Shown piece by piece: positions 28,004 to 63,737 of a DNA stretch of 64,000 nt (the stretch's first letter is position 1; every line of letters begins with the position of its first letter). Location of the stretch: assembly GCA_965216785.1 (NCBI GenBank), contig OZ244197.1:288001-352000 (forward strand). The letters run 5' to 3'. The position numbers and the translations under genes are program-made. The notes under the pieces are model-generated. The model had not been told where the DNA came from, ran no database searches, and saw only the letters and a program-made list of their open reading frames with translations. Source of the stretch: Thermodesulfobacteriota bacterium. Lineage in GTDB: Bacteria; Desulfobacterota_D; UBA1144; Nemesobacterales; UBA2774.

Positions 28004-28039
28004 AATAAATCTCCTTAGGTTTTATAATAAAGCGCTTAT

Positions 28040-29260
28040 CTACTTCTTATCATTGCCCGTGGGCTTTGGTGAAGCCGAAGGTTTTTCTTTCATTTCTTTT
28101 GCCTTGGCCTCTGCCTGAGCTTCGGTCTCGGTCTTAACGGTGAGTCCGGGCTTAATCCTCTGAAGCCCGTCTATGACTACCATCTCGCCTTCTGTAAGAC
28201 CCTTTTCTATGATCCGCTCCTCCTCGACTGAAGAGCCCGCGGTTACGGCCCGGAACTCGATCTTATTGTCCTTTCCGACGACGTAAACGAACGTATCGCC
28301 CTGCTGCTCACCCACAGCATTTTGGGGTACGACTATAGTGTTCGGGCGCTCTTTTAATAGAAGCTTTACCTTCGCGTACTGGCCCGGAAGAAGAGTCTTG
28401 GCAGAGTTTGGGATAATGGCCCTCATCTCCACGGTGCCCGTCGTGACGTCGATCTGGTTGTCTATGAAATCCACCTCTCCGTCTTCTGGATGGGTGCTGC
28501 CGTCTGATAGGATTATGCTCGCCGTAAGCGGCTTTTTATTCTGCTCCGTAAGCACCTGTGTGGTGTCGCGCTCGGCGACGCTGAAGTATACGTATATGGG
28601 GTCCAGCTTTACCAGGGTGGCAAGCTCGGTTGCCTCGCTCGCCCCTACAAGGTTCCCCACGTCCACCATACGCCTTCCAATGCGGCCGTCAAAGGGGGCA
28701 TTCATAGTACAGTAGCTGAGGTTAAGCTCGGCCTGTATCACGTTTGCGCGTGAGGCCTCTACCAATGCCCTCGCCTCTTTAGCCTGGGTTATAAACTGGT
28801 CGTATTCGTCCCTCGTTACGTAGTCTTTTTCCACGAGCGGCTCATAGCGTACCACCTGCTCCTTAGCGTAGGAAAGCGCCGCAAGGTTTTCGGCAAGCTC
28901 GGCCCGGGCCTCAAGCAAAGAAGCCTCAAAGGGCCTAGGGTCTATGACGAATAGAAGGTCCCCAGCCGAAACGTCAGAGCCGTCAACGAACGCTCTTTCT
29001 ATTAAGAAACCCTCGACGCGGGCGTTGATCGTAACTGACTCGATCGACTGCGCGAGCCCGACGTACTCAAGGTAGATGGGGACGGTCTCTTTTTTCACCT
29101 CGGCCACGGTCACGAGAGGCGTCGGCATCTTCTGCTCCTTATCCCCCTTGCCGCACCCTACCGGGACGATCAGAGTTACGAGCAGGCCAAGCACTAAAAA
29201 TAACGTAAGTCCCGCGCCCACCCATTTAGAAGCTCTAAATTTCTTACCTAGATATTTCAT
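28040..29260 (-). CDS. RND periplasmic adaptor (membrane fusion protein), lipoprotein
   Basis: VGC lipobox, ARVEG, APFDGRIG, LLPGQY. Confidence 0.95.
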   Translation of the reverse strand: MKYLGKKFRASKWVGAGLTLFLVLGLLVTLIVPVGCGKGDKEQKMPTPLVTVAEVKKETVPIYLEYVGLAQSIESVTINARVEGFLIERAFVDGSDVSAGDLLFVIDPRPFEASLLEARAELAENLAALSYAKEQVVRYEPLVEKDYVTRDEYDQFITQAKEARALVEASRANVIQAELNLSYCTMNAPFDGRIGRRMVDVGNLVGASEATELATLVKLDPIYVYFSVAERDTTQVLTEQNKKPLTASIILSDGSTHPEDGEVDFIDNQIDVTTGTVEMRAIIPNSAKTLLPGQYAKVKLLLKERPNTIVVPQNAVGEQQGDTFVYVVGKDNKIEFRAVTAGSSVEEERIIEKGLTEGEMVVIDGLQRIKPGLTVKTETEAQAEAKAKEMKEKPSASPKPTGNDKK

Positions 29261-30752
29261 CCGTAGTCTCCAATTCCTCTACTTGTTCTACTTGAACTTC
29301 TTCTACCTCTATCTCGGGCGAGGGTAGCTCCGTACCTATGGCATTGATCAGATCCGCATAGGAGGTAAATACCGAGGTTTTCGCCCCTACCTGCTCGGCG
29401 CGGGCCTCCGCAAGCAGCGTTTGTGCGTTAAGCAGCTCCACTATGTCACCCACTCCCGAACGGTAACGGGCAAGTGAGGCGTCGTATGACTCAATTGAGC
29501 TTTCGAGCAGTGTAGTCGCCGCGTCGAGCGATTGCACTGCCGTCCTGAAATTGTAGTAAGCGTCCCAAACTTCTTCTATGACAATCTGCTCCTGAAGCCT
29601 TAGCGCGGCGCGCGCGGATTCAAGCTCAGCGTCTGCTTCACGTACAGAGTTGATTATCGTAAACCCTTGAAAGATAGGCATTGTGAGCTGAAGACCGAAA
29701 AGATAATTTGTGAAAAAGTCGTCTGATCCTCCGTCAGGTCTCACCCACCACCTAAACGCCTGCGCGGTAGCTGAAATCTCGGGAAAGAACTCGCTCCTGG
29801 CCTCCCTTAATTCGGCCTGTCTCTCCCTTACTGTAGCCTGTACGGCGGCGACATCGGGTCTGTTTTCCATTGCAAGGTCTATGAGATCGTCAACGTTATC
29901 CGATAGGGCCTGCGCGGGGAGATCGTCAATGTCCTGCGCCACATCAAAATCGGTATTAGCGGGCCAGCCTACGTCGGTCGCAAGCTCTCCCCTGAATATT
30001 TCTACGTTCCCTCTGTCCTCAACTAGATCGAGCTGGACCTGGGAGAGAGTCGCCCGTGCCTGGAGCACATCGGGAAGCGTGCCCACTCCCGCCTCCAGCC
30101 TGAGCTCGGCGGCCTCGAGGCTCGTCTGGGCCTCTTCCATGTTAACCTCATCAGCTATCACAAGCGCTTTACTGCCAATGTAGTTATAGAAAGAGACCGC
30201 CACTTCATTAATTACGTCCTGTATAGCCTGGTTCTGGTTCCAGTTGGCGTTCATTAGAGCCATTTTTGCCGCTTCGACTTCAGCCTCCCTGCCGCCAAAA
30301 TCAAATAGCAGATAGTTTAACGTAGCGCCTACGTTTCCCGACTGCTCATCGAAAGCGCCGATCCCTGATGTTGAGCCTCCACCCCTTGAATATCCATAGT
30401 TTGCGGTGCCGCTTATTTGTGGATAGTACAGACCCCTTGCCTGAGCCCACGCGGCGGCGGCGGCCCTGGCCTCTTCCCAGGCTTGCTGAGTAGTGGGATT
30501 GTGCACGAGCGCTTCGTCGATGAGCTGAGAAAGTAAAAGCTCATCCGACTGTGGTTCGAGCTCTTCAGGAAGCGTGGGTAATTCCTCAAGAATGAAGGCC
30601 TTTTCACGCTCCTTCGCGCTCGGCTCCCACTCTTCTCCCGGCTCGGGGGAGGCTTGCTCATAGGGGTTAAGCTCGGGAATACCGTCGGCACAGGATTGCA
30701 GCAGAGCCGTAGCAAATATAGTAAAAACTAGAAAAGCTATTAGCCTATACAA
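29244..30752 (-). CDS. TolC-family outer membrane efflux lipoprotein
   Basis: Lipobox LQSC, ALVHNP, LFDFGGR, RPDV, RYRSGVG; two OEP repeats. Confidence 0.93.
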   Translation of the reverse strand: MYRLIAFLVFTIFATALLQSCADGIPELNPYEQASPEPGEEWEPSAKEREKAFILEELPTLPEELEPQSDELLLSQLIDEALVHNPTTQQAWEEARAAAAAWAQARGLYYPQISGTANYGYSRGGGSTSGIGAFDEQSGNVGATLNYLLFDFGGREAEVEAAKMALMNANWNQNQAIQDVINEVAVSFYNYIGSKALVIADEVNMEEAQTSLEAAELRLEAGVGTLPDVLQARATLSQVQLDLVEDRGNVEIFRGELATDVGWPANTDFDVAQDIDDLPAQALSDNVDDLIDLAMENRPDVAAVQATVRERQAELREARSEFFPEISATAQAFRWWVRPDGGSDDFFTNYLFGLQLTMPIFQGFTIINSVREADAELESARAALRLQEQIVIEEVWDAYYNFRTAVQSLDAATTLLESSIESYDASLARYRSGVGDIVELLNAQTLLAEARAEQVGAKTSVFTSYADLINAIGTELPSPEIEVEEVQVEQVEELETTDEISR

Positions 30753-50712: not shown

Positions 50713-52053
50713 ATGACTAAATATGCGATTATCATAATAAGCGCGCTTTGCTCAGTGGCTCTATACCAATTCGCGCCTATTGATAAGAACGTTTTGAAAG
50801 GGCTTTCGATACTGCTGTTCATAGCTGCCCTATGGCTGACCGAAGCCCTTCCGATTACGGTCACAGCGCTGATAGTGCCGGTGCTGGCTGTTATAACGGG
50901 TATTTTCAACGTTAAAGAGGCTCTGAGCTACTTCGCGCACCCGATAATATTCTTGTTCCTCGGAGGTTTCGGACTGGCGGCGGCCTTGCACAAGTACAGC
51001 TTGGACGAGCTTTTCGCCGGCTATATAATGAAAGCCGCCGGCACGAAAATGCTGTACTCGATACTAGGGCTATTCGTATCAACCGCGGTTCTGAGCATGT
51101 GGATAAGCAACACGGCGACGACCGCTATAATGCTTCCCGTTGCTCTCGGACTTATAGCGAGCCTTAAAGAAAAGAACGCGGCGAACGAAACTTTCATTCT
51201 GCTCGGGGTCGCTTACTCGGCCAATATCGGCGGTATAGGAACCATAATAGGAAGCCCGCCGAATGCCATAACCGCAGCGAACCTGGGCCTTAGCTTCAGC
51301 GAATGGTTAAGTATCGGAATTCCAGCCGTATTGGTACTGTTCCCCGTGATGATAGTAGTACTCTATTTCAAATTAAGACCAAGGCTTCCGGAAGTAAGAA
51401 CGGTCCGTAAAACAACAGTGGAGCTAGTATTCAGTAATCCTAAGAGTTATAAGGTCGCGGCTATATTTGCAATCACCGTGCTACTGTGGTTATTTAGCAA
51501 ACCCCTCTCATCACTCTTGGGGATAGAAAAGAATTTTGACTCGCTTATCGCTGTGTTCGCGATAGTGTTACTTGTGCTTTTCAGAACTATCAGGTGGAAG
51601 GAGGTGGAGCGCTTTACGGACTGGGGGGTGCTGCTCTTATTTGGCGGGGGACTCGTGCTGAGCGGAGTATTGGGAGAGACGGGGGCGAGCAGATACCTTG
51701 CAGGGATAGTCGAATCCGGCATGTCCCACTACGGTCTATTACTTTTGCTCTTGGGTTCAGTAACACTAATGATTTTCTTGACGGAGTTTGCGAGTAACAC
51801 GGCGAGCGCGGCGATTATGGTACCTATATTTCTGACCCTCGGCCAAGAGCTTTCACTCGCCTCGCCTGATGTGCTGGCTCTGAGCGCGGGGATAGCGGCA
51901 TCATGCGCTTTTATGCTCCCGGTCGCGACACCGCCAAACGCGCTGGTTTTCGGAACGGAAAAGATAAAACAGCGGACAATGATAAAAACGGGCCTAGTAC
52001 TAAATATAATATCGGCGCTGATTATAGCCGTTATGGCCTATTTTATAATCTAA
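50713..52053 (+). CDS. DASS/SLC13 sodium:dicarboxylate symporter
   Basis: Two SNT motifs (WISNTAT, FASNTAS), GSPPN, PVATPPNA. Confidence 0.93.
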   Translation: MTKYAIIIISALCSVALYQFAPIDKNVLKGLSILLFIAALWLTEALPITVTALIVPVLAVITGIFNVKEALSYFAHPIIFLFLGGFGLAAALHKYSLDELFAGYIMKAAGTKMLYSILGLFVSTAVLSMWISNTATTAIMLPVALGLIASLKEKNAANETFILLGVAYSANIGGIGTIIGSPPNAITAANLGLSFSEWLSIGIPAVLVLFPVMIVVLYFKLRPRLPEVRTVRKTTVELVFSNPKSYKVAAIFAITVLLWLFSKPLSSLLGIEKNFDSLIAVFAIVLLVLFRTIRWKEVERFTDWGVLLLFGGGLVLSGVLGETGASRYLAGIVESGMSHYGLLLLLLGSVTLMIFLTEFASNTASAAIMVPIFLTLGQELSLASPDVLALSAGIAASCAFMLPVATPPNALVFGTEKIKQRTMIKTGLVLNIISALIIAVMAYFII

Positions 52054-52076
52054 ACAGCAGAGAATCAAAGAGTGCA

Positions 52077-52346
52077 TTACTGCTTGGTAAGCTTATGGGG
52101 ATTACGGTACGGGCATGAGCGGTCGCTGCACCTGTCGGGGATTATTTTCGTACCTTTCTACCATTAGTGAGCCGTGCAGTACTCACTGTTAGGCCTTGAG
52201 TCTACCCAGAAATTACATTCTTTTTCCCTGCACTTGTATACAGGGCCGAAGCGGCCCCTTACGGGATTTAATTCTCCCCATTTGCAATCAGGACATGTAA
52301 CCCCGGTTGGAGTCAGCTCTGTGAATTTACAATCTTCTTGTGCCAT
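52077..52346 (-). pseudogene. Topoisomerase-I-type C4 zinc-finger small protein, disrupted
   Basis: CPDC...GRFGPVYKC...C. After TAA and TAG the same frame continues KGTKIIPDRCSDRSCPYRNPHKL; an offset frame across the break reads GSLMVE. Confidence 0.65.
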
Positions 52347-52434
52347 TATCGAGACCGTCTCATAACATGATTTATCTTACTTATTGTATTATAGATGCGG
52401 CGGCACAAAATTGGTTTCGCATACTTGTCTGCAA

Positions 52435-53235
52435 CTACCAGCTTAGAGTGAACATCAACCCTGAAGACTGTCCGTCGGTAAAAGGCAAAACGGTAAATCT
52501 GTTTCCCTTTTTATTTTTGTGCACCTTGGCTACTCCCCTTCCGATGGCCGTGCCGAGCGCCGCGCCGAACAGTACGTCGGATAGAAAATGTTTGTTATCG
52601 GAGATTCGGGACAGCCCTACAAACCCGGCAAAAGCGTAGAGCGGGATACCGATTTTATGACCGTACATTGAATCTACGGTAGCGGCGAGAGCAAAGCTGC
52701 CTGATGTGTGACCCGAAGGAAACGACGAGGTAAAACGCGTGCCGCTGCCGTCAGGTCTCTCTCTACCTACTGTAAGCTTGAGCACACTTGTGCTGAAGGC
52801 TGTTAAAATATTCGCCTCAAAAAGAGCCTTTGCCGTCTCTATAAGTTTCTCATCGCCAGAGCTGGAACCTATTAAAAATAAAGCAGTATTGATACCGGCG
52901 AGTGTGAGTGCGTTTCCGCCTATATCACCGATATCACCGAATTTACCTAAAGAGTTATTCAGACTATCCTGGATTTCTCGGTCGGCATCTGTTTGGGAAA
53001 GCAGTAGAGACGCCCCCGTAGCAGTGCCTAAAATAGCGAGGTTCCAGCCCCTAAATGTATTACTCGCGCCGAGAAGTAGGTTTTTAGGAAGGGTCTGGGT
53101 TAAGTAAGTCTTATAATTTTCTTCTCCCGATTCTCCGTACTCAAGCTCCTCCGCTGAAGAACCCGGCAAGAGTAGAAAGATATATAGAGAAATTGCGATT
53201 AATAGCTTTACAATAAAATGCAGTGCTGTCTGCAC
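52435..53235 (-). CDS. PAP2-family phosphatase
   Basis: KLTVGRERP, SFPSGH, SRISDNKHFLSDV. The track start (53295) lies inside the promoter, so GTG at 53235 is preferred. Confidence 0.9.
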   Translation of the reverse strand: MQTALHFIVKLLIAISLYIFLLLPGSSAEELEYGESGEENYKTYLTQTLPKNLLLGASNTFRGWNLAILGTATGASLLLSQTDADREIQDSLNNSLGKFGDIGDIGGNALTLAGINTALFLIGSSSGDEKLIETAKALFEANILTAFSTSVLKLTVGRERPDGSGTRFTSSFPSGHTSGSFALAATVDSMYGHKIGIPLYAFAGFVGLSRISDNKHFLSDVLFGAALGTAIGRGVAKVHKNKKGNRFTVLPFTDGQSSGLMFTLSW

Positions 53236-53270
53236 TATATGATCTATAGTAGCCGCCCCCCTAGAGAACC

Positions 53271-53324
53271 AGAGTAAAGAGCCACTATTACACAATCATT
53301 ACGTGAAAATTACATTACTGTAAT
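53271..53324 (-). promoter_or_regulatory. Response-regulator box array plus -10 for the PAP2 gene
   Basis: Minus strand ATTAC-N6-GTAAT-N6-GTAAT-N6-GTAAT-N10-TACTCT. Confidence 0.75.
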
Positions 53325-53495
53325 ATTCAGGATATTTACCGTTAAATGATAGAATGAGGAATTATAATATAGTAGAATCATAATATATTAGGGTTAAGTA
53401 TCTTACTCCTATGCGTAAGTAATGACGGTAACTTAAGATTACTTTTTACAGCTGTAATTGAGATTCAACGATGGCGATGGGCTAGAGCGGGCTAA

Positions 53496-54785
53496 ATGAT
53501 GAAAATCAACTATAAGGTGCTTTCTATCATGACAGTCTTTATATTTTTACTCTTGCTTCCTACCGAATCCTACGGACAGGCGCGCAAAGCCCGTTCGGAA
53601 GGCTTTGACCCAAACGAACCCCCGGAGACAAGGTTTAAAATTGCCCCCTACCTTACGTTCGGAGCTCAGATTGAGGTTGAGTATAAGCTCGACAGGAACG
53701 TGGACCTGGACGGCTCTACAGATGAAGACCTTTCCACAATAGAGCCTGAAGTGAATCTTGCTTTCTCCTTTGATCCGTTCAGCTTCCTTCAGGTGTTCGC
53801 GAACTTTAAGCTCGGCTTGGAATTTGAGATAGAGGACGGCCGGAAACAAAAAGACCGCTCGGTGTTTGAAGTCGAGGAAGCCTATCTTTTTCTAAAAGAT
53901 TTATTTGATGACAGGTTTTCACTTCAAATCGGACGTCAGCAGTTTGATGACGAAAGACAGTGGCTTTATGACGCAGAGCTTGACGGGGTTAGAGCTTTTA
54001 TTTTGACTTATGGCGTTGTTACCCAGCTTTCCGTGAGCCGGGGCGGTCTCGTAAATAGGGATCTTTTGAGAGAGAGCGCCGGTGACAAGATAAATAACTA
54101 TATTGCTTATTCGACTTATTTCTTTAACGAGGATACAAACGTGGCGGCATACTTTGTGGCCCGTGATGATACCACGGGTGAGAACGACAGCCCTATATTT
54201 ATCGGGATTCACTCTGACGGAGAGGCTACTGACAGTCTGGATTACTGGATAGAGCTTGCCTATGTGACAGGGGAGGAAGGTACGAATAATTTAAGTGGGT
54301 TCGGGTTTGATATAGGTACGGTTTACGCTTTTGACACCTTGCTCGAGCCCTCAATTACGCTCGGATACGCGTTTGGGACCGAGGAATTCCGTCAGACGGG
54401 GCTTCAGAGTAACGAAGGGGATTTTAATGGTGTGGTTGATTTCCTTTATTACGGAGAGCTGTTTGACCCGGAGCTTAGCAATCTTTCTATATTGACAGGG
54501 GATGTAGGAATTCTTCCTACTGAGGAAACCTCTATTGACCTCGTATATCACTACTACTTTCAGACTGAGGCTTCGGATGAAATTAGGGAATCAACACTTG
54601 AAGCCGAGCCTGACGGAGTGAACAAGAGTCTTGGGAGCGAGATCGATCTGATACTCGGGTTCGAGCAGAAAAGTGAAAAAATCGCGGCTGCTTTATCTTT
54701 TGGATTCTTCTTTCCAGGAAGCGCTTTCCCTAATGACGCTGTGAACGCTTTTTCAACAAAACTTATTCTGTCGTATGAATTCTAG
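53496..54785 (+). CDS. Alginate-export (AlgE-like) outer membrane beta-barrel
   Basis: Signal peptide, EAYL, GRQQF.DERQWLYD.ELDG, FRQTGLQ.N, YYGELFDPELSNL, terminal YEF. Confidence 0.82.
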   Translation: MMKINYKVLSIMTVFIFLLLLPTESYGQARKARSEGFDPNEPPETRFKIAPYLTFGAQIEVEYKLDRNVDLDGSTDEDLSTIEPEVNLAFSFDPFSFLQVFANFKLGLEFEIEDGRKQKDRSVFEVEEAYLFLKDLFDDRFSLQIGRQQFDDERQWLYDAELDGVRAFILTYGVVTQLSVSRGGLVNRDLLRESAGDKINNYIAYSTYFFNEDTNVAAYFVARDDTTGENDSPIFIGIHSDGEATDSLDYWIELAYVTGEEGTNNLSGFGFDIGTVYAFDTLLEPSITLGYAFGTEEFRQTGLQSNEGDFNGVVDFLYYGELFDPELSNLSILTGDVGILPTEETSIDLVYHYYFQTEASDEIRESTLEAEPDGVNKSLGSEIDLILGFEQKSEKIAAALSFGFFFPGSAFPNDAVNAFSTKLILSYEF

Positions 54786-54842
54786 CGAAATAAGTTTAAG
54801 TAGGCTTGCGTATGAATAAAAAATGTGTAAGAAGGTTAAATT

Positions 54843-55517
54843 ATGCGGGTATTGGTTATAGAGGACGATAAAAAGATAGCCTCCTTTATTAATAAGGGCT
54901 TAAAACAGGCGGGATTTGCGGTAGACCACGCCGAAGATGGAGAGGAGGGTCTGAGCCTGGCGCTTCATGAGTCATACGACGCAGCAGTTGTAGACATCAT
55001 GCTTCCTAAGCTAGACGGGCTGAGCGTTATAGAAGAGCTGAGGAGAAGCAAGGTCAATACCCCCGTAATAATACTCAGCGCAAAACGCTCGGTGGACGAT
55101 AGGATCAGGGGGCTTGAAAGCGGGAGCGATGACTATCTTACAAAGCCGTTTTCGTTCTCAGAGCTTCTGGCACGCATATACGCACTTATCAGACGGGCGA
55201 GCGGGGCGGCTGAATCGACACGACTGAGCGTCGGCAGCCTTACGATGGACATACTCAACCGCGAAGTCATAAGAGATGATAAGAATATAAATCTGCAGCC
55301 GCGGGAATTCACCCTTCTCGAATACTTTATGCGGAGCGCCGGGCGGGTGCTTTCGAAGACCCTCATAATGGAGCACGTATATGATTATAACTTCGACCCG
55401 CAGACCAATGTCGTGGACGTGCTAGTTTGCAGGCTCCGTAACAAAGTGGACAAAGGATTTGAAAAGAAGATGATCCATACCATAAGAGGTGTTGGCTATG
55501 TTCTTAAAGAACCCTAA
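54843..55517 (+). CDS. OmpR-family response regulator (CusR/CopR-like)
   Basis: IEDD, DIMLP, DDYLTKPF, NVVDVLVCRLRNK, TIRGVGY. Confidence 0.95.
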   Translation: MRVLVIEDDKKIASFINKGLKQAGFAVDHAEDGEEGLSLALHESYDAAVVDIMLPKLDGLSVIEELRRSKVNTPVIILSAKRSVDDRIRGLESGSDDYLTKPFSFSELLARIYALIRRASGAAESTRLSVGSLTMDILNREVIRDDKNINLQPREFTLLEYFMRSAGRVLSKTLIMEHVYDYNFDPQTNVVDVLVCRLRNKVDKGFEKKMIHTIRGVGYVLKEP

Positions 55518-56883
55518 ACTGCTCTTTAAATCAAACAGCTTCAGGATGATAACGTGGTACACGGTGTTCTTTGTCCTGAGCTCCCTTATTGTAAACATCT
55601 ACGCATACTCGGTGATATCTAAATTTATATATGAGCAGAGTAGAGAGGAAGTAGGGGAGGATATAGAGGAGCTAAGGGATATATATCTGGAAAGCGGCAC
55701 TGAGGCGCTTCATACAGAAGTGTTTGAAGACGCGAACGACCCTTTCATAGTACGAATGGTCACAAAACAAGGGGATACGGCGCTGCTGAGAATCCCGCAA
55801 GATTGGGAGGGCGTTAACCTTGCGCAAATGGATCAAACACTTTACTCCCAGTATACACAGTGGGCATATCTTACAGAAAGCGGGATGGAGGAGCGGATTG
55901 AGTTTGCGACTCTAGGAGTATCGGATGGCTCGATATTACAGATCGGACAAGAAATTGACGCAAGAGAAGACCTCTTGAGCCGTATACGCCGGGTATACCT
56001 CTTTTCTCTGATTCCTATCCTGGTCCTTGGCTATTTAGGCGGGCTGTTCGTAGCCGACCGTGCTCTTAACCCTGTCAGACAGCTCATATCTACGCTCAAT
56101 TCCATAGTGGAAAGCGGGAAAATGAACGTCAGGGTACCAGTGCCTGAGACCGATGAACTGTACAGAGAGCTGATATCGCTCTTTAACACTATGCTCAGTA
56201 AAATAGAGACCTTGGTTAACGGAATGAGGGGAGTGCTGGATAATGTTGCGCACGATTTGAGGACGCCGATGACAAGATTTAGAGGCACTGCCGAGGTAGC
56301 GCTCGCGTCAGAGCAAAATGGGGAGACGCTACGCGAGGCCCTGGTTGATTGCGTTGAGGAATCTGAGCGAATCTTAATAATGCTGAATACTCTGATGGAC
56401 GTCTCGGAAGCGGAGACGGGAGCCATGAAGCTTAACCCAGAAAAGATGAACGTGACTCCGCTTATTGAAGACATAGTAGACCTCTACGACTATGTTGCTG
56501 AGGAAAAAGGCGTTACTGTCAAAACCGGCTTCCCGGAAGAGATTTATCTCACAGCCGACCGTAACCGTTTGCGCCAGGTGCTGGCAAACCTGCTTGATAA
56601 CGCCATTAAGTACACACCTGCCGGAGGGAGAGTAGACGTCGAAGCCAGCCGGGAAGACAAAGAAGTAAAAATCACGATAAAAGACACCGGGGTCGGCATA
56701 TCCGACAAAGAGCTCGACAACATTTGGGACAGGCTTTACCGGGGCGATAAAAGCAGGACTCAAAGAGGGCTCGGCCTCGGGCTTAGCCTGGTCAAAGCTA
56801 TCGTCGGGGCTCACAGGGGATACGTCGAGGTCCTGAGCAAGCCCGGCTCGGGCTCGGTATTTTCAGTACACTTGCCTGCGTAA
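55498..56883 (+). CDS. Sensor histidine kinase (two TM, HAMP, HisKA, HATPase)
   Basis: AHDLRTP, NLLDNAIKY, DTGVG, GLGLGL; overlaps the regulator stop codon. Confidence 0.95.
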   Translation: MFLKNPKLLFKSNSFRMITWYTVFFVLSSLIVNIYAYSVISKFIYEQSREEVGEDIEELRDIYLESGTEALHTEVFEDANDPFIVRMVTKQGDTALLRIPQDWEGVNLAQMDQTLYSQYTQWAYLTESGMEERIEFATLGVSDGSILQIGQEIDAREDLLSRIRRVYLFSLIPILVLGYLGGLFVADRALNPVRQLISTLNSIVESGKMNVRVPVPETDELYRELISLFNTMLSKIETLVNGMRGVLDNVAHDLRTPMTRFRGTAEVALASEQNGETLREALVDCVEESERILIMLNTLMDVSEAETGAMKLNPEKMNVTPLIEDIVDLYDYVAEEKGVTVKTGFPEEIYLTADRNRLRQVLANLLDNAIKYTPAGGRVDVEASREDKEVKITIKDTGVGISDKELDNIWDRLYRGDKSRTQRGLGLGLSLVKAIVGAHRGYVEVLSKPGSGSVFSVHLPA

Positions 56884-56924
56884 AGTAGCCTTTCAGATTG
56901 TTTCTACTATCTCCACCCTGAATT

Positions 56925-56978
56925 ATTTCAAAACCGTAATGTTAGGGAAATATTCCCGTAATCCTCTCCTGATAGTCT
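56925..56978 (+). promoter_or_regulatory. Response-regulator box array plus extended -10
   Basis: ATTTC-N6-GTAAT-N6-GAAAT-N6-GTAAT-N10-TAGTCT, with TG before the -10. Confidence 0.75.
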
Positions 56979-57008
56979 GTATGTAAAATCTAAATCAGGA
57001 GGTGTTTT

Positions 57009-57815
57009 ATGAGACGTATAAAGGCGTTTGGGTTTATTTCCGACGGTTTTAGAATGCGGGGGCGTATCGGGTTATTTGCTCTACTTTTGGCGGCGGTATT
57101 CGTCATGGGTCTCTCAGGAACCGCTGAGGCATTTGAAGACGCCGAGGTTAGGATCGAGACAAATTCCACCGATGGAGACTCCGGACTTCAGCTCTTTTTT
57201 GACGGAGAGCCATGGAAGAGAACCATAGTCAGGGGACCTGACGGGCGTATCGTATTTTGGGTTACCAACCTAGGGAAGCTGAGGAGATTCGGCACTACCG
57301 AGAATTTTATGGAGAGTAACGAGCCTAACTACGAGGAAGAAATGACCCTGCCCGAGATCCTCGAGTTTTTACCCGCGGGTGAATATAAGTTCCACGGTAG
57401 AACTGTCGACAACGAAAAACTATTTGCTACAGCGACATTAACTCATGACTTACCGTGCGGACCCGTAGTTACCTCGCCTGTATCACCGGATCCGGAAGAA
57501 GACCCTGAGCTGGACCCGAGCATGCCGGTAATTTCGTGGGAGGCGGTAGTGAACAAGATCGATACGGAATCTGATTTCGGGGAGTGCGATGAAGCAGACT
57601 TTGATATTACTGTCACCGGTTACGAGGTCGTGGTAGAAAATGAGAGCACAGACCCCACGGAAACGTTCACTATAAAACTTCCGGCGGGAGTGCTTCAGGT
57701 AACGCTTCCTCCGGAATTTGTTATCCCCGGCGATGATTATAAATTCGAAATACTCGCGATCGAGGAAAGCGGGAATCAGACAATAACTGAAAGTAACTTT
57801 ACGGCTATTGAATAG
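57009..57815 (+). CDS. Secreted acidic hypothetical protein, C-terminal beta-sandwich (Fn3-like)
   Basis: AGGAGG RBS; signal peptide ending AEA; ETNSTDGDSG...DGEPW motif; ends ILAIEESGNQTITE. Confidence 0.85.
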   Translation: MRRIKAFGFISDGFRMRGRIGLFALLLAAVFVMGLSGTAEAFEDAEVRIETNSTDGDSGLQLFFDGEPWKRTIVRGPDGRIVFWVTNLGKLRRFGTTENFMESNEPNYEEEMTLPEILEFLPAGEYKFHGRTVDNEKLFATATLTHDLPCGPVVTSPVSPDPEEDPELDPSMPVISWEAVVNKIDTESDFGECDEADFDITVTGYEVVVENESTDPTETFTIKLPAGVLQVTLPPEFVIPGDDYKFEILAIEESGNQTITESNFTAIE

Positions 57816-57844
57816 CCAATAAATTGAATAGCCCCTTTAAGGGT

Positions 57845-57904
57845 AAAGGGACCTCTCTTAACAGTATTGTTGCTGGAAGGGCAGCGGAGGGAGAGGTCCC
57901 CTTT
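57845..57904 (+). terminator. Branched stem-loop after the 57009 gene (terminator or structured RNA)
   Basis: GGGACCTCTC/GAGAGGTCCC 10-bp stem enclosing two small hairpins; only a short T tail. Confidence 0.45.
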
Positions 57905-58056
57905 CATATTGATTGCCAGCCCTAATATCTAAATGCTTTTAAACACAGCCCACCTTCTCTCTCATTATATATTTACCACCCCGGCCACACCTTCCCCATC
58001 GGCCGGGGTGTATCCCCGAGAAAGAGGTTTGGATTGCGTATGAAATGTGCAGGTTC

Positions 58057-58110
58057 CTTTCCGTTTTGTAATGATTGTGAAAGATTCGCGTAATTCTAGT
58101 TTGCTATTCT
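58057..58110 (+). promoter_or_regulatory. Response-regulator box array plus extended -10
   Basis: CTTTC-N6-GTAAT-N6-GAAAG-N6-GTAAT-N10-TATTCT, with TG before the -10. Confidence 0.75.
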
Positions 58111-58145
58111 GCAATTAAATTCAAGTTTACAGAGGAGGTATTAGT

Positions 58146-58871
58146 ATGAAGCGTTTAATTAGCCTAACGGCTTTATTGGTAACTATATCTATTCTGTCCA
58201 TTGGCGGCTGCAGCAGCAGCGGGGGCGGGGGAGGTAACAACGGGGGATGTCCTGAAACAAACACGAGTATAGCTGTCTGTGACCCGGAGACCGGAGTGTT
58301 CTCATTAACCATAGATAACGGTTTCTTCCCCCTGGTCGTGGGCGATGAGCTGGTGCTCGAAGGCGAGGACGATGAAGGCACTTTCATTGAGATTATTATT
58401 ACAGTTCTTGATGAGACGGAAGTAGTTGCCGGGGTAACCACAAGGGTTGTGGAGGAAGCAGAATTCGAGGATGGAGAAATGGTCGAGGTCTCAAGGAATT
58501 TCTTCGCTCAGGCCCAGGACGGCACCGTTTGCTACTTCGGTGAAGACGTGGACGATTTTGAGGACGGGATGATAGTCGGGCACGAAGGGGCATGGCGTGC
58601 CGGAGAGGACGGGAACCTGCCGGGAATAATTATGCCGGGGAATCCACAGGTCGGCATGGTGTTTAGTCAGGAAGTAGCGCCCGGCATAGCCGAGGACCAG
58701 GCCGAGATACTGCTTTTCGGCGAGACTATTGACGTGCCTGCAGGAGAGTTCAGTGATACGCTTACCACACTTGATTGTAACCCGCAGGAGAACGGCTCTA
58801 CAGATGAAAAGGTTTACATAAGAGGAATCGGGCTTGCTATCGATGAAGATGCAGAGCTCGTATCCTTTTAG
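58146..58871 (+). CDS. Highly acidic lipoprotein of unknown function
   Basis: GAGGAGG RBS, lipobox IGGC, Ser/Gly linker; IDN.FFPL, FAQ..DG.V.YFGE, WRAG.DG..PGIIMP. Confidence 0.88.
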   Translation: MKRLISLTALLVTISILSIGGCSSSGGGGGNNGGCPETNTSIAVCDPETGVFSLTIDNGFFPLVVGDELVLEGEDDEGTFIEIIITVLDETEVVAGVTTRVVEEAEFEDGEMVEVSRNFFAQAQDGTVCYFGEDVDDFEDGMIVGHEGAWRAGEDGNLPGIIMPGNPQVGMVFSQEVAPGIAEDQAEILLFGETIDVPAGEFSDTLTTLDCNPQENGSTDEKVYIRGIGLAIDEDAELVSF

Positions 58872-58910
58872 ATTGACTATTAAAAACAATCATCACTCTA
58901 AACCTCTTAT

Positions 58911-58950
58911 TGGGCGGTGAGAACAGGTAAATCCCTGCATTCACCGCCCA
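58911..58950. terminator. Hairpin between convergent genes (likely bidirectional terminator)
   Basis: TGGGCGGTGA...TCACCGCCCA perfect 10-bp stem with inner CAGG/CCTG. Confidence 0.65.
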
Positions 58951-58954
58951 CTTT

Positions 58955-59383
58955 CTATTCCGCTTTATTGATCTCGGCAAGCTCGATGAGGACTCCGTTC
59001 ATCGCCTTTGGATGGATGAACGCCACCCTTGAGTTGTAGGCGCCCGGCCTGGGGGATTCGTCTATGAGTCTTACCCCCTGATCTTTAAGTCTATTCAGCA
59101 CAGCCTCGATATCGTCTACGAGATAACAGATGTGGTGGATACCCTCCCCTCTCTTATCCAGAAATTTAGATATGGGGGAGTTATCGTCTAAAGGCTCTAG
59201 AAGCTCGATTGCGGTGCCGCCTTTTTCCGGCACAAGCATGGAAGTCTTTACGCCCTGGTCTTCAACAACCTCACGGTGCTCTACTTTAAGACCCAGAGCG
59301 GTCTCGTATATTTTTTCTACCTGCTCAAGGTCTCTTACAGCTATCGCGACATGATATAGATTTTCAAGTATTCCTTTATCCAT
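58955..59383 (-). CDS. mce: Methylmalonyl-CoA epimerase
   Basis: HVAIAV, EDQGV, IELLEP, GEGIHHI, FIHPK..NGVLIEL. Confidence 0.93.
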   Translation of the reverse strand: MDKGILENLYHVAIAVRDLEQVEKIYETALGLKVEHREVVEDQGVKTSMLVPEKGGTAIELLEPLDDNSPISKFLDKRGEGIHHICYLVDDIEAVLNRLKDQGVRLIDESPRPGAYNSRVAFIHPKAMNGVLIELAEINKAE

Positions 59384-59460
59384 TATTTTATACTCCGAAG
59401 TTTAAATGATTTTTATAATGACAGGTTGAGTTATATCTTACCTGTATAAAAGAGAAAACA

Positions 59461-59883
59461 TTAAACAGACTGGGCTTTTTTGGTTCCGGACTGGATCTTT
59501 CTTTCGATCCCCCTGGCAAACCTTTCCTCATTTACGATGTACATATCGTTTGAGCCTGAGGCTATCTTTTCCGTATCGTCGTATGCGTCTATCTTAAAGT
59601 AGATCGTGCTGCCTTTGCACTTATCGATTTCAGCCCTGACCATAAGCTCTGAGCCTATTGGCACAGAGGCAAAGTGGCTTAGCTCAATCCTGGTGCTCAC
59701 TACCATCTCGCCCTTATCCAGAAAAGGGGCCATAAGATCGGCGCACGTTGTCTGCACGAATGTAATGAGAGAAGGGCTTGAAAGCACCTGTGGGGAATTT
59801 GCGTGAAAGCGTGACGCGGCCATGTCGGGCTTTGTATCGATTCTTTTTTCTATGAACATCCCGGGCTCAAATGATCGTCTCAT
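59461..59883 (-). CDS. FlK-like hotdog thioesterase family protein
   Basis: VLSSPSLI...C, LSHFASVPIG, V.EERF pattern of the fluoroacetyl-CoA thioesterase family. Confidence 0.75.
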   Translation of the reverse strand: MRRSFEPGMFIEKRIDTKPDMAASRFHANSPQVLSSPSLITFVQTTCADLMAPFLDKGEMVVSTRIELSHFASVPIGSELMVRAEIDKCKGSTIYFKIDAYDDTEKIASGSNDMYIVNEERFARGIERKIQSGTKKAQSV

Positions 59884-60048: not shown

Positions 60049-61170
60049 TTATTGATAGCCGGTGAGCTCGACGTAGCCGCTTCCGGATGTACCGCTGCCT
60101 GAAGCACTTACGGCTCCTTCCCAGTAGACGAACGAGAGATTAAGCTCCTGGTTGGGCTGATAGGGCACGACTGTCAGATCAATCCCATATTCCGGAATAG
60201 ACACCTGCCACTTTGAGGGATAGGTGACACCTGTTTCAGGACTCTCCCAGGTACTGAGGACTTCTATATTGAACTCCGAAGCCTCAAGAGCTATTGTCGA
60301 ACCATCTTTTTCTATCAGTGTGCCGGCGGAGTGAGTATCAATAGAGCCGTCTTTTTTTCTTAGCTGATAGAGCATAATTTCACGCCCGTCATCGAGCTGA
60401 ATGGAAAACCAGTCCCAACCCTCTAGTTTTTCACTAAGTGCGCTCGTGCTCCATTCACGGTCGAGCCAGCTGAGTCCCTGCACTTCAAACTCACTACCGT
60501 CTACTTTGATACTTCCCTCTGTTTTAATGCGTGTAACTGAGTAGTAATAAGACGCGTTACCGGGCTCACTGCTCTTTTGACTAAGACCACGGTCGCCCTG
60601 GAGAACAAGGGGCTTTAGGGACTCTAGTGTCAGATTAATTGAGAAATCAATATCGCTTGCTGTAAGCTTGATTACGTCCCTTTCTTTAGTAGAATTCCAG
60701 TCCTTGATCCATACGCGGTGGGGATCGGCCTTTGCTCCGGCAAGCCCAAGCGCCGCCCTACTCCACCTTTCAGCGCTGTAGAATTTCTTGTTCTCTATAT
60801 CGCTTACAGTGAAGTGCGCGAAATAAATCTGGTTTGCCGCCCAAGCAGATTCCCTCTCTATATTATCGGGGGTTAAAGCTCTCCTGAAAAAGGTAAGCTG
60901 GTAACCGAAGCTGCGGCCTGAGCTGTCCTCTAAATTGCCGGTGTAATACCACCATTCGGTTTGATACCCAGGGTGCGGGCCCGAATCCTCAGGGAACTTA
61001 AAATTCCTTACTTCCTGAGCCCTCTTAAAACCTGGATGTGGCTCGCCTGAGAGGGTGCTTGAAAAGTCAGTGCGACGCTCCTTTTCCGGCTCAGCCCAGG
61101 ATAGTAAGATGAATGGACCTGTAAAAAAAGAGAGAATTAAAATGAATGCGACTATGTATCGTTTTTTCAT
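60049..61170 (-). CDS. AttH/CrtC-like lipocalin-domain secreted protein
   Basis: FP.D.GPHP.YQTEWWYYTG, SYYYS, WLDREWS, GWDWF, YWEG, GYVELTGY. Confidence 0.9.
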   Translation of the reverse strand: MKKRYIVAFILILSFFTGPFILLSWAEPEKERRTDFSSTLSGEPHPGFKRAQEVRNFKFPEDSGPHPGYQTEWWYYTGNLEDSSGRSFGYQLTFFRRALTPDNIERESAWAANQIYFAHFTVSDIENKKFYSAERWSRAALGLAGAKADPHRVWIKDWNSTKERDVIKLTASDIDFSINLTLESLKPLVLQGDRGLSQKSSEPGNASYYYSVTRIKTEGSIKVDGSEFEVQGLSWLDREWSTSALSEKLEGWDWFSIQLDDGREIMLYQLRKKDGSIDTHSAGTLIEKDGSTIALEASEFNIEVLSTWESPETGVTYPSKWQVSIPEYGIDLTVVPYQPNQELNLSFVYWEGAVSASGSGTSGSGYVELTGYQ

Positions 61171-61181
61171 AATAAACCTTT

Positions 61182-63737
61182 TTACTCCTCCCTTAATAAA
61201 GCGGCTGTGTCTTCCCGGTCTATTACAAGAGCCGGATAAACTCCCGCAGCTAAAGCCGCTATAACGGATACTGCAATCCCCTCGACGAAGAACCTAGGCT
61301 GAAGCGTGAGATCGATAGTCCATCCGAAAGAGCGGAGATTTACCACATAAATGAGTAAATACGAGAGCAGAAGACCCACTGGGATGGAGAGCAATCCTGC
61401 TGTGAGGCCAATGAGGGCATTTTCTAAAAATGTCATTTTTCTTAACTGCGCCACCGTCATTCCGATTGCCCTGAGCATGCCGAACTCCTTTACCCGTCCA
61501 AGCTGAAGGGCCATGAGTGAGCTAAGGACACCTATGAACGCAACCACCACGACTAGAATCCTGAGCGCTCCCGTGACCTTAAAAGTGCGGTCAAATGTAT
61601 TTAAGGCGGACTCTTTGAGAGCATAGTTGGAACGGACGCGGACATTATATTTTTGAGATAATTCATTTGTGAGCTCCCGCGCTATTTCTGCCGGGTCTTG
61701 CCGCGAGACAACATTTGCCGCAAGAGAATTAATCAGCGCATCGTCCCATAAAGAACGATATACAGTATCCGACATCAGGACGACCCCTGTTTGATAGCTG
61801 TAATCATAATAAATGCCAGCGACTTTAAACTCCCTGTACCCATTGTCAGTAAGAAGCTTGACGGTATGCCCAGGGCCGGGCTGAATGTTGTTTCTATATG
61901 CGAATGATTCAGAGACCAAGACCGAGTCCTTAAGAAGTTTCTGCCAAATCTGTGCCGGGCTTCCCTCGCTCCATATGAATTTTTTATTCTCAGACGCTAT
62001 ATCCTCTGTTACGGCGAGCAGGTTGAAGGGTCCGTACTCGGGACTCGTAAGCCTTAGTCTCCTGGCCGTAGCAACATTATCTATGCCGGGGAAACCGGCA
62101 ACTTCAGAGAAAATAGCGGGATCAAGCCCAATATTGCTGCTTACGTTCTGCGAAGCTGCGGAAATGAAAATATCTGCGTTAAGCGTGCCCTCGAGCCAGC
62201 TTACAACTGTGACCCTGAAGCTCCCTATCATAATCCCTACGCTCAGTATGACCGAAACAGCAACTGTGAGTGAGGCAATGGCAACACCTGTGCGGCTTAG
62301 TGAGCGTACAACATTGAGTGGAGCCATTTGAGCGATAACCCCGATAGAACCGCCAAGGTATGAAAAGAGATTCATTAACACTCTCGTAATGAGAGGGACA
62401 AGAAGGGAAGAGCCGAGGAGTATTAAGAACACAGAGACGAGGCCGAGGCCAAGGCTATCTGAAGGAATGTATATAAGCAGTAAGCCGGTAGCGATTAAAC
62501 CCGCCCCGGCAAAACTTAAAGGCTTAAGTGACTTAAGCACCAAGCTTTCCAATGTGGACCGGGACAGAGCGCCCGCCGGTTTAACACGGGAAGCCTCGTA
62601 AGCGGGAACAACGCCGGCAATAACCGATGCTACTATCCCAAGCAGTAAACCTTTTATCATAGTATAGGGTGATAGGGTGAAATCTGTAACCGTGAGTGTG
62701 AAGTAGAGGTCGTTTATAGTGCTCGTAACGAGGCCGAGAATCCCCCTTCCCATAAAAGCGCCGAGAAATAAACCCAAAATACTTCCGATGATTCCCAGTA
62801 TGAGGGTTTCGACAAGGACCGTTTTAAAGACCTCGGGGCCTGTGACGCCGAGCGCGCGAAGCACGGCGAATGTGTGGCGTCTTGAGAGAACCGAGAATAT
62901 GACGGCGTTATAAATAAGGAATAAGCCCACAAAAAGAGCGAGCAGGCTGAGGGTCATCAAATTGAGCTCAAAAGCCCTGGTCATACTCTCGGCTGATTTA
63001 GACACCTGATCGATGCGCTCGATATCCATGCCTTCAGGCAAAATATCTTGTATGAGGGCAAGACTGAGACTGCCCTCTGATGACTTGTCATCTAGAGAGA
63101 GATCAATGTGTGTTAGCAGGCCGCTCTTATTCAAAAGCTCCTGCGCCGTCGATATATCGCTGATTATAATTCCGTCAAGATCAATTGCCCCGGCACTTCT
63201 ATCGGGTTCTATAAAGCCGATTATCCGAACTTTTTCACTCATAGAGCCGTAGGTGATCTGGAGCTGATCCCCTTTGCTTATTCCTTCACTATCTGATAGG
63301 GACTTGGGTAAGAGAACAGCGCCTGGCGCAGTGAGTAATGAAGAGAAGGTTTCCGGCGGCAGGTCCTGATCTAAAATACTTTCACTTGAATTTGAGCTCG
63401 AGAAGGGATCGATGCCGATAAGCCTAAGAGCGCGCCCGTCAAGAGCAGGGACGTTAATATAATCTTCGACGTAAGGCAGGACATTACTTACGCCCTGTTT
63501 TATTAGATCGACATATACACCTTCTTCGACACTGCCGTTTCTCCCGGTTATACGGTGTGTGGCACCTTTGGAAAACGCCTCGGTGCTGATTGAAAACGAT
63601 AGCGCCGCGCTCTTGTTCGCGAGATCTACAGAGGTTACAAGCGCTACGCCAAGAGCGATTCCGAGAACGAGCAGAAAGCTCTGGAGCGCGTGTTTTCTTA
63701 TATAGCTAAATCCGACTCCGAGTAAAGTAAGATTCAT
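61182..63737 (-). CDS. FtsX/MacB-like ABC permease (AttFG-like)
   Basis: Two MacB/FtsX halves, GIALGVA, LRALG, FDRTF, N.RSFGW. Confidence 0.92.
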   Translation of the reverse strand: MNLTLLGVGFSYIRKHALQSFLLVLGIALGVALVTSVDLANKSAALSFSISTEAFSKGATHRITGRNGSVEEGVYVDLIKQGVSNVLPYVEDYINVPALDGRALRLIGIDPFSSSNSSESILDQDLPPETFSSLLTAPGAVLLPKSLSDSEGISKGDQLQITYGSMSEKVRIIGFIEPDRSAGAIDLDGIIISDISTAQELLNKSGLLTHIDLSLDDKSSEGSLSLALIQDILPEGMDIERIDQVSKSAESMTRAFELNLMTLSLLALFVGLFLIYNAVIFSVLSRRHTFAVLRALGVTGPEVFKTVLVETLILGIIGSILGLFLGAFMGRGILGLVTSTINDLYFTLTVTDFTLSPYTMIKGLLLGIVASVIAGVVPAYEASRVKPAGALSRSTLESLVLKSLKPLSFAGAGLIATGLLLIYIPSDSLGLGLVSVFLILLGSSLLVPLITRVLMNLFSYLGGSIGVIAQMAPLNVVRSLSRTGVAIASLTVAVSVILSVGIMIGSFRVTVVSWLEGTLNADIFISAASQNVSSNIGLDPAIFSEVAGFPGIDNVATARRLRLTSPEYGPFNLLAVTEDIASENKKFIWSEGSPAQIWQKLLKDSVLVSESFAYRNNIQPGPGHTVKLLTDNGYREFKVAGIYYDYSYQTGVVLMSDTVYRSLWDDALINSLAANVVSRQDPAEIARELTNELSQKYNVRVRSNYALKESALNTFDRTFKVTGALRILVVVVAFIGVLSSLMALQLGRVKEFGMLRAIGMTVAQLRKMTFLENALIGLTAGLLSIPVGLLLSYLLIYVVNLRSFGWTIDLTLQPRFFVEGIAVSVIAALAAGVYPALVIDREDTAALLREE

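Follow-up and report, generated by a model that had tools for sequence, protein, structure and literature searches.

A candidate cation-responsive two-component module with acidic envelope proteins in a Dadabacteria genome

The 64,000-nucleotide stretch analysed here (the window; positions 288,001 to 352,000 of contig OZ244197.1, assembly GCA_965216785.1, Thermodesulfobacteriota bacterium) carries, at 52435..58871, a two-component system (TCS) of heavy-metal type together with genes for a PAP2-family phosphatase, an AlgE-like outer-membrane barrel and two acidic exported proteins. Sequence comparisons support the view that these genes form one conserved, co-regulated unit. We hold it an even call that this module is a cation-sensing system which sequesters or buffers metal in the cell envelope; its outputs and sensor are carboxylate-rich and homologues of its parts occur in metal-resistance clusters, two statements supported by the data below. 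The window is part of a single-contig genome of 3.12 Mb, 92% complete by markers. Since the closest homologues are labelled Candidatus Dadabacteria or Thermodesulfobacteriota, the group is called Dadabacteria here. X58 and Y57 are names given here to the families of the 58146 lipoprotein and of the 57009 protein, respectively; RR and HK designate the response regulator and the histidine kinase, and OMF-MFP-RND a type of efflux operon. The features are as follows.

52435..53235, minus strand (longest open reading frame 52435-53295): PAP2-family membrane phosphatase, accessory member (PF01569, catalytic motifs)
53287..53324, minus strand: regulator array 1, facing the PAP2 gene, with a -10-like TACTCT 10 nt past its last unit
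53496..54785, plus strand: AlgE-like outer-membrane barrel, strongly acidic (PF13372, AlgE matches in the PDB)
54843..55517, plus strand: OmpR-family response regulator, CusR/CzcR/HprR-like (TIGR01387 as best model, tree)
55498..56883, plus strand (longest open reading frame from 55489): HAMP sensor histidine kinase (TIGR01386 as best model; acidic, His-poor loop)
56925..56962, plus strand: regulator array 2, with a -10-like TAGTCT at 56973-56978 after 10 nt
57009..57815, plus strand: Y57, exported acidic protein with two predicted FN3-like beta-sandwiches (model, fold searches, conservation)
57845..58010, plus strand: two hairpins and a C/T-rich tract (comparison with another genus)
58057..58094, plus strand: regulator array 3, with a -10-like TATTCT at 58105-58110 after 10 nt
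58146..58871, plus strand: X58, very acidic lipoprotein, predicted all-beta (lipobox, model, conservation)

All six genes named in the original prediction proved to be real, and none has a full-length close paralogue elsewhere in the genome. For the kinase, the ATG at 55498 is a more likely start than 55489; the TTG at 53295 lies inside array 1, so the PAP2 protein more likely starts near the GTG at 53235. An Rfam scan of 51500-59500 gave no match.

Three of the genes had been predicted to carry the same promoter array, and matrix scans bore this out. The array consists of an inverted pair, ATTAC-N6-GTAAT, followed by two further direct units, which makes four units in 11-bp steps (in full for array 1, ATTAC-N6-GTAAT-N6-GTAAT-N6-GTAAT). 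Activation with an operator unit at the place of the -35 element is a known behaviour of the OmpR/PhoB family. All three window promoters have a TAnTCT hexamer exactly 10 nt past the last unit, a spacing that would fit activation with this unit replacing the -35 element. A CusR/HprR/CzcR-type box, a sequence criterion of the heavy-metal TCS subfamily, is present in the predicted target promoters: the palindrome of the array equals the published CusR/HprR box (PMC9302797) and its distal unit pair equals the CzcR motif (PMC13209446). Array 1, including its palindrome, also lies upstream of the barrel-RR-HK genes and is kept upstream of the barrel in relatives without PAP2, so that it probably serves these three genes as well.

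With a 44-bp matrix built solely from 37 sites of relatives, arrays 1, 2 and 3 scored 30.6, 44.6 and 32.3 bits and were the three best sites of the genome, the next best (15.5 bits) lying inside a gene. Because the training sites had been picked with a seed partly derived from the window, the test was repeated with 20 sites from one other genus. The window arrays again occupied ranks 1 to 3 (40.0, 24.5 and 22.2 bits) with a thinner margin, the next site scoring 19.0 and ten column-shuffled matrices 15.2-18.6. A degenerate array pattern gave 52 matches in 21 of 61 genomes, and the reversed pattern none. Forty-nine of these matches are positioned in the module, counting a site before an RND operon in G044 and two inferred across contig ends; the remaining three were found after a related kinase fragment (G036), beside PAP2 at a contig end (G003) and at an apparently chance position (G011). 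The raw spacing GTAAT-N17-GTAAT showed no genome-wide enrichment (12 occurrences), so it is matrix scores and conservation that make the case for the array. A scan for sigma-70 promoters stayed at chance level, with 8 found and 9.4 expected.

In one other genus (g2), a fourth array precedes a 44-codon open reading frame (L031:8289, L033:8142, L034:4145, L035:8943 and L037:8691, all on the minus strand). This frame is apparently leaderless, has a hydrophobic N-terminus and, in L037, an ATA start, and is followed by a C/T-rich tract and a terminator-like hairpin. It could encode a feedback peptide or belong to a dual-function RNA. The window keeps only the C/T-rich tract and the second hairpin (57950-58010), without the fourth array and the 44-codon frame.

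The genome encodes four CusA/CzcA pumps and five P1B ATPases for heavy metals that score above cut-off, as well as one multicopper-oxidase domain. No array was detected within 5 kb upstream of nine RND, five P1B and one oxidase genes, the best score near these 15 genes being 3.5 bits. This supports an uncoupling of the regulator from the pumps and oxidase of the genome, and ordinary CusRS control of pumps was rejected. Since, moreover, the only CusR-like regulator found in the genome is that of the module (the next regulator is 33% identical), the predicted regulon is the module itself, with three promoters; it includes no inner-membrane importer. The claim that the module has no efflux pump stands for this genome but not for every relative, an array preceding OMF-MFP-RND genes in G044. 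As far as predicted binding sites go, the genome shows that a CusR-type regulator and its box can be uncoupled from efflux. An RND efflux operon at 24893-30752, 22 kb upstream of the module, falls below the CusA/CzcA cut-off and is without array.

Conservation was analysed among 60 relatives, all of them kin and many fragmented, with the kinase as anchor. An orthologous kinase was present in 18 of them, three matches at 28-29% identity having been set aside as paralogues. The predicted co-occurrence held for X58 (18 of 18), for the barrel (15 of 18, two of the three misses being contigs that end in the kinase) and for Y57 (13 of 18); it failed for PAP2, present in only five, in G013 beside a paralogous TCS. 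No partner accompanies the kinase more constantly than X58. The order barrel-RR-HK-(Y57)-X58 was observed in 10 of the 20 loci examined, with differing flanks, and the others were rearranged. In the sister species G001, of the same genus (L023; G001:C164, 341-674 and 669-2300), about 6 kb are deleted, which has removed the module and left the end of PAP2 fused directly with that of X58. Outside Dadabacteria, regulators 60-67% identical sit with X58 or Y57 (L074, L187, L191, L195), a locus labelled Myxococcota (L062) has the order X58-barrel-RR-HK with an array, and L186, L187 and L191 have another predicted porin, under an array of its own, before the regulator. In relatives, separate arrays (24.5-34.2 bits) also accompany three scattered X58 paralogues and a Y57 gene that stands alone, which suggests that these families were repeatedly placed under this regulator.

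Two further types of locus were encountered. The module genes of L042:7007-11109 (G032) are split into several frames, by decay or by assembly error. Downstream of a paralogous TCS (L169:8220-12655, L176, L170:8383-11817; regulator 62-65% and kinase 41-42% identical), there is a gene for an exported beta-propeller-like protein with IPTL-CTERM. The paralogous TCS of G013 also has a divergent PAP2 gene with an array and lies beside a cation-efflux gene and a metal-sensing repressor.

The best NCBIfam models of the regulator and the kinase were TIGR01387 (270.2 bits, below the cut-off of 279.2) and TIGR01386 (215.3 bits, below the cut-off of 292.55). In a tree of 36 regulators, none of them characterised, the module rows fell within a 29-row group rather than in one resolved clade, and this group was separated from CopA-/CzcE-linked and actinobacterial rows with a support of 98/96. 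Sensors of heavy-metal TCSs are known to carry His/Met metal ligands in their loop. The sensor loop of the window kinase had been described as Asp/Glu-rich rather than His-rich, and with 27 D/E, 11 K/R and a single His it is so; a search with this loop against PDB sequences gave nothing significant. The loops of 13 orthologues contain 0-2 His, none of them conserved, and the sensor has only 0-3 Met. An RE pair just before the second membrane helix is invariant (13/13), at the place where ColS has FEARE. Net acidity of the sensor reached 8-19% in all 12 loci with X58 or Y57 and ranged from -1 to 4.5% in eight of nine other loci, the exception being L184 (10%).

Acidity also characterises the outputs: mature X58, Y57 and barrel occupy net-acidity ranks 3, 9 and 21 among 503 exported proteins of the genome (called heuristically and ranked as mature proteins), all within the top 5%. 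The barrel belongs to PF13372 (119.2 bits, cut-off 25.2) and matches AlgE in the PDB. Its net charge is -48; 13 module barrels range from -38 to -63, versus -15, -22 and +2 in three barrels from polysaccharide clusters. At several alignment columns, D241 and D315 among them, module barrels have acidic residues and the others basic ones. Among the ring arginines of AlgE listed in PMC4118822, the pore residues Arg353 and Arg362 align with E307 and D315, respectively, if the chain numbering of 4afk is shifted by a presumed +32, which puts Arg at 129, 152, 353 and 362. The three comparison barrels share E307, so that only D315 is specific to module barrels. There are no alginate, glycosyltransferase or synthase genes in the module, in line with the original prediction that it lacks an alginate synthase. 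Alginate-type export was rejected for want of synthase genes and because of the reversed charge. Export of an anionic polymer is unlikely, and the composition of the barrel suggests that it may pass or bind cations. At the level of alignments, this case shows that a protein annotated for 'alginate export' can in fact be a charge-reversed barrel. A homologue 38% identical to the window barrel is found in G038, ahead of PhoX and czcCBA.

The nearest plasmid homologues of the barrel are in glycosyltransferase clusters. Loci L131, L132, L133 and L134, which include Ca. Manganitrophus and Escherichia plasmids, combine AlgE-family barrels with glycosyltransferase, phosphotransferase and ABC-transporter genes, which suggests an uncharacterised polysaccharide pathway.

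The lipobox of the window X58 is IGGC, at residue 19. Neither X58 nor Y57 of the window matched Pfam at E 0.1 or NCBIfam at E 0.01, nothing significant was found among PDB sequences, and the ESM Atlas returned only unnamed or FN3 clusters and a DUF3108-like lead below 0.9. The X58 model (pLDDT 89) is all-beta and nearest to YmcC/DUF3108-like barrel proteins. By fold it comes closest to 4fvs, a lipoprotein of Parabacteroides (Z 11.2, rmsd 3.6, 163 residues); further matches include 3fzx (E 1e-4), DUF1849 and small barrels, with YmcC, LolA and RseB/MucB among the neighbours. PF21347 is absent from the window X58 and present in 6 of 120 long X58 homologues. The Y57 model (pLDDT 92) shows two beta-sandwiches, of which the C-terminal one is an FN3 domain (Z 10.0, rmsd 2.3 over 95 residues; PF00041 on homologues) and the N-terminal one is less clearly assigned. 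A fold shared with known proteins does not show a function for either family.

Both families are large, with 4714 homologues for X58 and, for Y57, 2494 cluster representatives at E<=0.001, of which 508 reach E<=1e-30. Conserved positions of X58 are E104, E114, E133, W150, E176, D184, D/E210, K222 and D233; among 79 non-redundant domains, E114, G132, W150 and an acid at 184 are invariant, while E133, D/E210, K222 and D/E233 exceed 90%. Only two of these 79 domains are non-acidic overall, so that specific and general acidity are hard to separate. Among 156 Y57 domains, E50, N52, D57, D65, E102, E105, H146, E247 and N256 are conserved at 92-99%, and 13 of 145 representatives are not acidic overall. 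The conserved acids of both families may form a cation site. X58 and Y57 occur in one chain, in either order, in 14 of the 120 long X58 proteins and in 10 of 32 long Y57 representatives, two sets that may overlap. The same 120 proteins include fusions to PepSY-like domains (two) and to metallophosphoesterases (two), and up to six tandem X58 repeats per chain were found. From their sequences, we infer that X58 and Y57 are probably binding modules.

The X58 family extends to other contexts. A large group of exported proteins of about 480 amino acids (P0304-P0357) has an unannotated N-terminal half and a C-terminal X58 domain. Plasmids yielded three matches to X58 and no homologue of Y57. An X58 gene of G059, which has no array, is flanked by a MerR-family gene and a Cu-ATPase. 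Among loci of Gemmatimonadota and Actinomycetota (L078, L086, L089, L106, L124, L125), the former associate X58 with an extracytoplasmic function (ECF) sigma factor and a TonB-dependent receptor-like gene, and tandem X58 genes flank other OmpR-type systems in the latter.

The PAP2 protein (PF01569, 64.7 bits) has its KX6RP, PSGH and SRX5HX3D motifs intact, and its only match among PDB sequences is LpxE (6ebu, E 4e-4). Given its presence in five of 18 kinase-bearing relatives, it was rejected as a core member; phosphate release, which had been proposed as part of the response of the module, would then be an accessory rather than a core function. PAP2 was nevertheless found in metal contexts. 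In G056, a 59%-identical PAP2 and OMF-MFP-CusA/CzcA genes (czcCBA) come after a perfect box and a regulator that exceeds the TIGR01387 cut-off, and a second PAP2 fragment follows a Cd/Zn-type ATPase; other homologues (G041, G059) are without metal context.

Taken as a cation-sensing system, the module could operate in the following way. A carboxylate-bound metal cation in the periplasm is the likely stimulus of the kinase, and the phosphorylated regulator would bind the arrays head-to-tail. It would activate PAP2, Y57 and X58 and probably control barrel-RR-HK. Membrane-anchored X58 and periplasmic Y57 would together bind cations via their conserved carboxylates, and the charge-reversed barrel would pass or bind cations, not an anionic polymer. 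PAP2, as an accessory, may free phosphate from a lipid carrier or lipid A, leading to metal precipitation as with PbrB or to a change in envelope charge. The most probable signal is a surplus of a Zn/Cd/Pb/Mn/Fe-group metal, divalent or trivalent, and Ca is the next candidate; the neighbourhoods name Zn/Cd/Cu-type systems more often than Ca. No pyrroloquinoline quinone (PQQ) alcohol dehydrogenase (TIGR03075) was found in the 92%-complete genome, which weakens the lanthanide option of the original cation claim, and lanthanide acquisition for a PQQ enzyme was rejected.

Several observations weigh against the cation-sensing interpretation. With related regulators, the same box precedes genes for PepSY (44.8 bits), HbpS-like (33.9), TPR (33.8), GT2/GT39 (31.9) and copper oxidase (CopA, 28.8 bits) proteins, the HbpS-like gene in Vibrio and the GT2-GtrA-GT39 fusion, TPR gene and CopA oxidase elsewhere; the type of box thus does not fix the signal. 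The G044 array (30.5 bits) precedes an OMF-MFP-RND operon whose pump matches multidrug models best, all below cut-off. X58 also adjoins ECF sigma factors, TonB-dependent receptors and other TCSs, and the acid completing a ColS-like ExxE ([D/E]xxE) is found in just 7 of the 13 sensors. A general acidity marks the exported proteins of this genome (median net acidity 4.3%, lipoproteins 6.7%), the acidity comparisons of sensor and barrel were made among kin, so that kinship and habitat confound them, and the comparison barrels are only three, two of them nearly identical.

A Paraburkholderia plasmid (L182:15001-23739) carries a PepSY gene, an ABC/FtsX set and a 72%-identical regulator, with two arrays (44.8 and 20.4 bits), and offers a cultured host for studying this regulator clade.

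It is also possible, though unlikely, that the module is an envelope-stress regulon in which the kinase responds to a disturbed membrane or to cationic peptides, lipid A is remodelled or undecaprenyl phosphate recycled by PAP2, and X58 and Y57 are chaperone-like, lipid-carrying or kinase-modulating proteins. LpxE as the nearest solved PAP2, YmcC, LolA and RseB/MucB among the fold neighbours of X58, and the box of related regulators before GT2/GT39/GtrA and, weakly, HtrA genes are all consistent with it. The hydrophobic peptide of 44 amino acids under the fourth array resembles feedback peptides such as MgrB, a small peptide of this kind. In Pseudomonas, a comparable gene is PP0900, which we take to encode a PAP2 protein and to be oriented divergently to colR. 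This phospholipid-metabolism gene, upstream of colR, is activated by ColR (PMC4074579); ColRS itself, however, is metal-activated. The accessory status of PAP2 (5/18) also argues against envelope stress, which would leave unexplained the parallel acidity of the sensor, the barrel and both exported families, as well as the czc contexts. Acquisition or homeostasis of a cation (Ca, Mg, Mn or a lanthanide), in which the acidic barrel would import the ion and X58 and Y57 hold or relay it in the manner of CarSR, appears rather improbable. An acid-lined barrel would suit cation entry, a sensor almost without His or Met is compatible with it, a different porin takes the same place before the regulator outside Dadabacteria (L186, L187, L191), and the beta-propeller gene downstream of the paralogous TCS recalls CarP (PMC10574481). 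Nonetheless, the predicted regulon lacks an inner-membrane importer and the genome search a PQQ alcohol dehydrogenase, the neighbourhoods name efflux and resistance genes, and the clean deletion of the module in the sister species G001 fits a dispensable function.

Acidity could finally be a habitat or family trait, the signal being an oxidant or small molecule as for HprSR, and X58 and Y57 being enzymes or ligand-binders acting on glycan or lipid. This is the interpretation to which we give little credence. The box is identical to that of HprR, an HbpS-like gene lies under it in Vibrio, X58 conserves a Trp and several Glu/Asp on its strands, and related barrels serve glycosyltransferase clusters. 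Against it stand the acidity of X58, Y57 and barrel, within the top 5% of the exported proteins of this genome, the tandem X58 repeats, which with up to six per chain point to binding more than to catalysis, and a sensor with only 0-3 Met. A bolder version of the cation-sensing system, unlikely in our judgement, would make the module a carboxylate counterpart of the copper cop system, with a cation-selective porin that arose from an anion-exporting AlgE barrel by charge reversal, the widespread partner families X58 and Y57, with their thousands of members, as a new class of periplasmic binders of hard cations (such as Ca, lanthanides, uranyl or Pb), an acid-loop sensor and, in one genus, a feedback peptide of 44 amino acids.

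Comparison with described systems places the module in none of them: it would be closest to ColRS, UzcRS and UipRS in logic and to the cop system in layout, an outer-membrane barrel combined with a putative Ig-fold periplasmic binder recalling copB and copC. CusRS, CopRS, CzcRS and HprSR are the best-scoring families and share the box, but both module proteins fall below the cut-offs, the sensor is acidic with one His, the regulator stands apart from CopA-/CzcE-linked rows, and the pumps, ATPases and oxidase of this genome have no arrays. Pseudomonas ColRS resembles the module in the phospholipid-metabolism gene upstream of the regulator and in envelope outputs without a dedicated pump, and may resemble it in metal sensing through glutamates near the second membrane helix. 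ColS was reported to sense Zn, Fe, Mn and Cd through ExxE (PMC4074579), a motif found to be modulatory in another study (PMC13524251). ColRS differs in that the motif is incomplete in six of the 13 module sensors, that the module has a CusR-type box, and that its outputs are X58, Y57 and barrel instead of lipopolysaccharide kinases and EptA. Caulobacter UzcRS/UrpRS and Microbacterium UipRS-UipA are likewise TCSs tied to exported uncharacterised proteins, with a CATTAC-N6 half-site; UipA, an acidic PepSY protein, binds uranyl (PMC8963506), and the 72%-identical Paraburkholderia regulator is predicted to drive a PepSY gene. UzcR, however, is global, with 57 binding regions versus three predicted promoters, and neither X58 nor Y57 is a PepSY protein. 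Pseudomonas CarSR, with CarO and CarP, also has exported outputs for cation tolerance, and the paralogous TCS has a beta-propeller partner, but no OB-fold or propeller was found in the module by Pfam. Cupriavidus PbrB, a membrane phosphatase, precipitates lead with phosphate from C55-PP (PMC4790310), and a close homologue of the window PAP2 lies in a czc operon; PbrB, however, works with the PbrA pump. The barrel shares family PF13372 and PDB matches with AlgE and differs from it by the absence of alginate or glycosyltransferase genes, by its net charge and by Glu and Asp at the places of Arg353 and Arg362.

Downstream of the module, 60049-63737 encodes a CrtC/lipocalin protein and an ABC permease with two FtsX domains, without array; these genes are not kept beside the module in relatives. 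Literature searches on Dadabacteria metal two-component systems, on DUF3108 and on AlgE with heavy-metal two-component systems showed no description of the module among the papers listed (for the last topic, 15 of 111), at the level of listings and with subscription journals outside their scope.

The broad principle of the module, a metal-type TCS with envelope outputs, has precedents in ColRS, UzcRS, CarSR and UipRS and is to that extent less surprising. The value of the module lies in its two large unnamed partner families and in the charge-reversed AlgE barrel. X58 and Y57 gain a shared context, a regulator, a predicted binding site and candidate ligand residues. Should these families prove to bind metals, they would represent new metal-capture scaffolds, and the TCS would be a new biosensor part.

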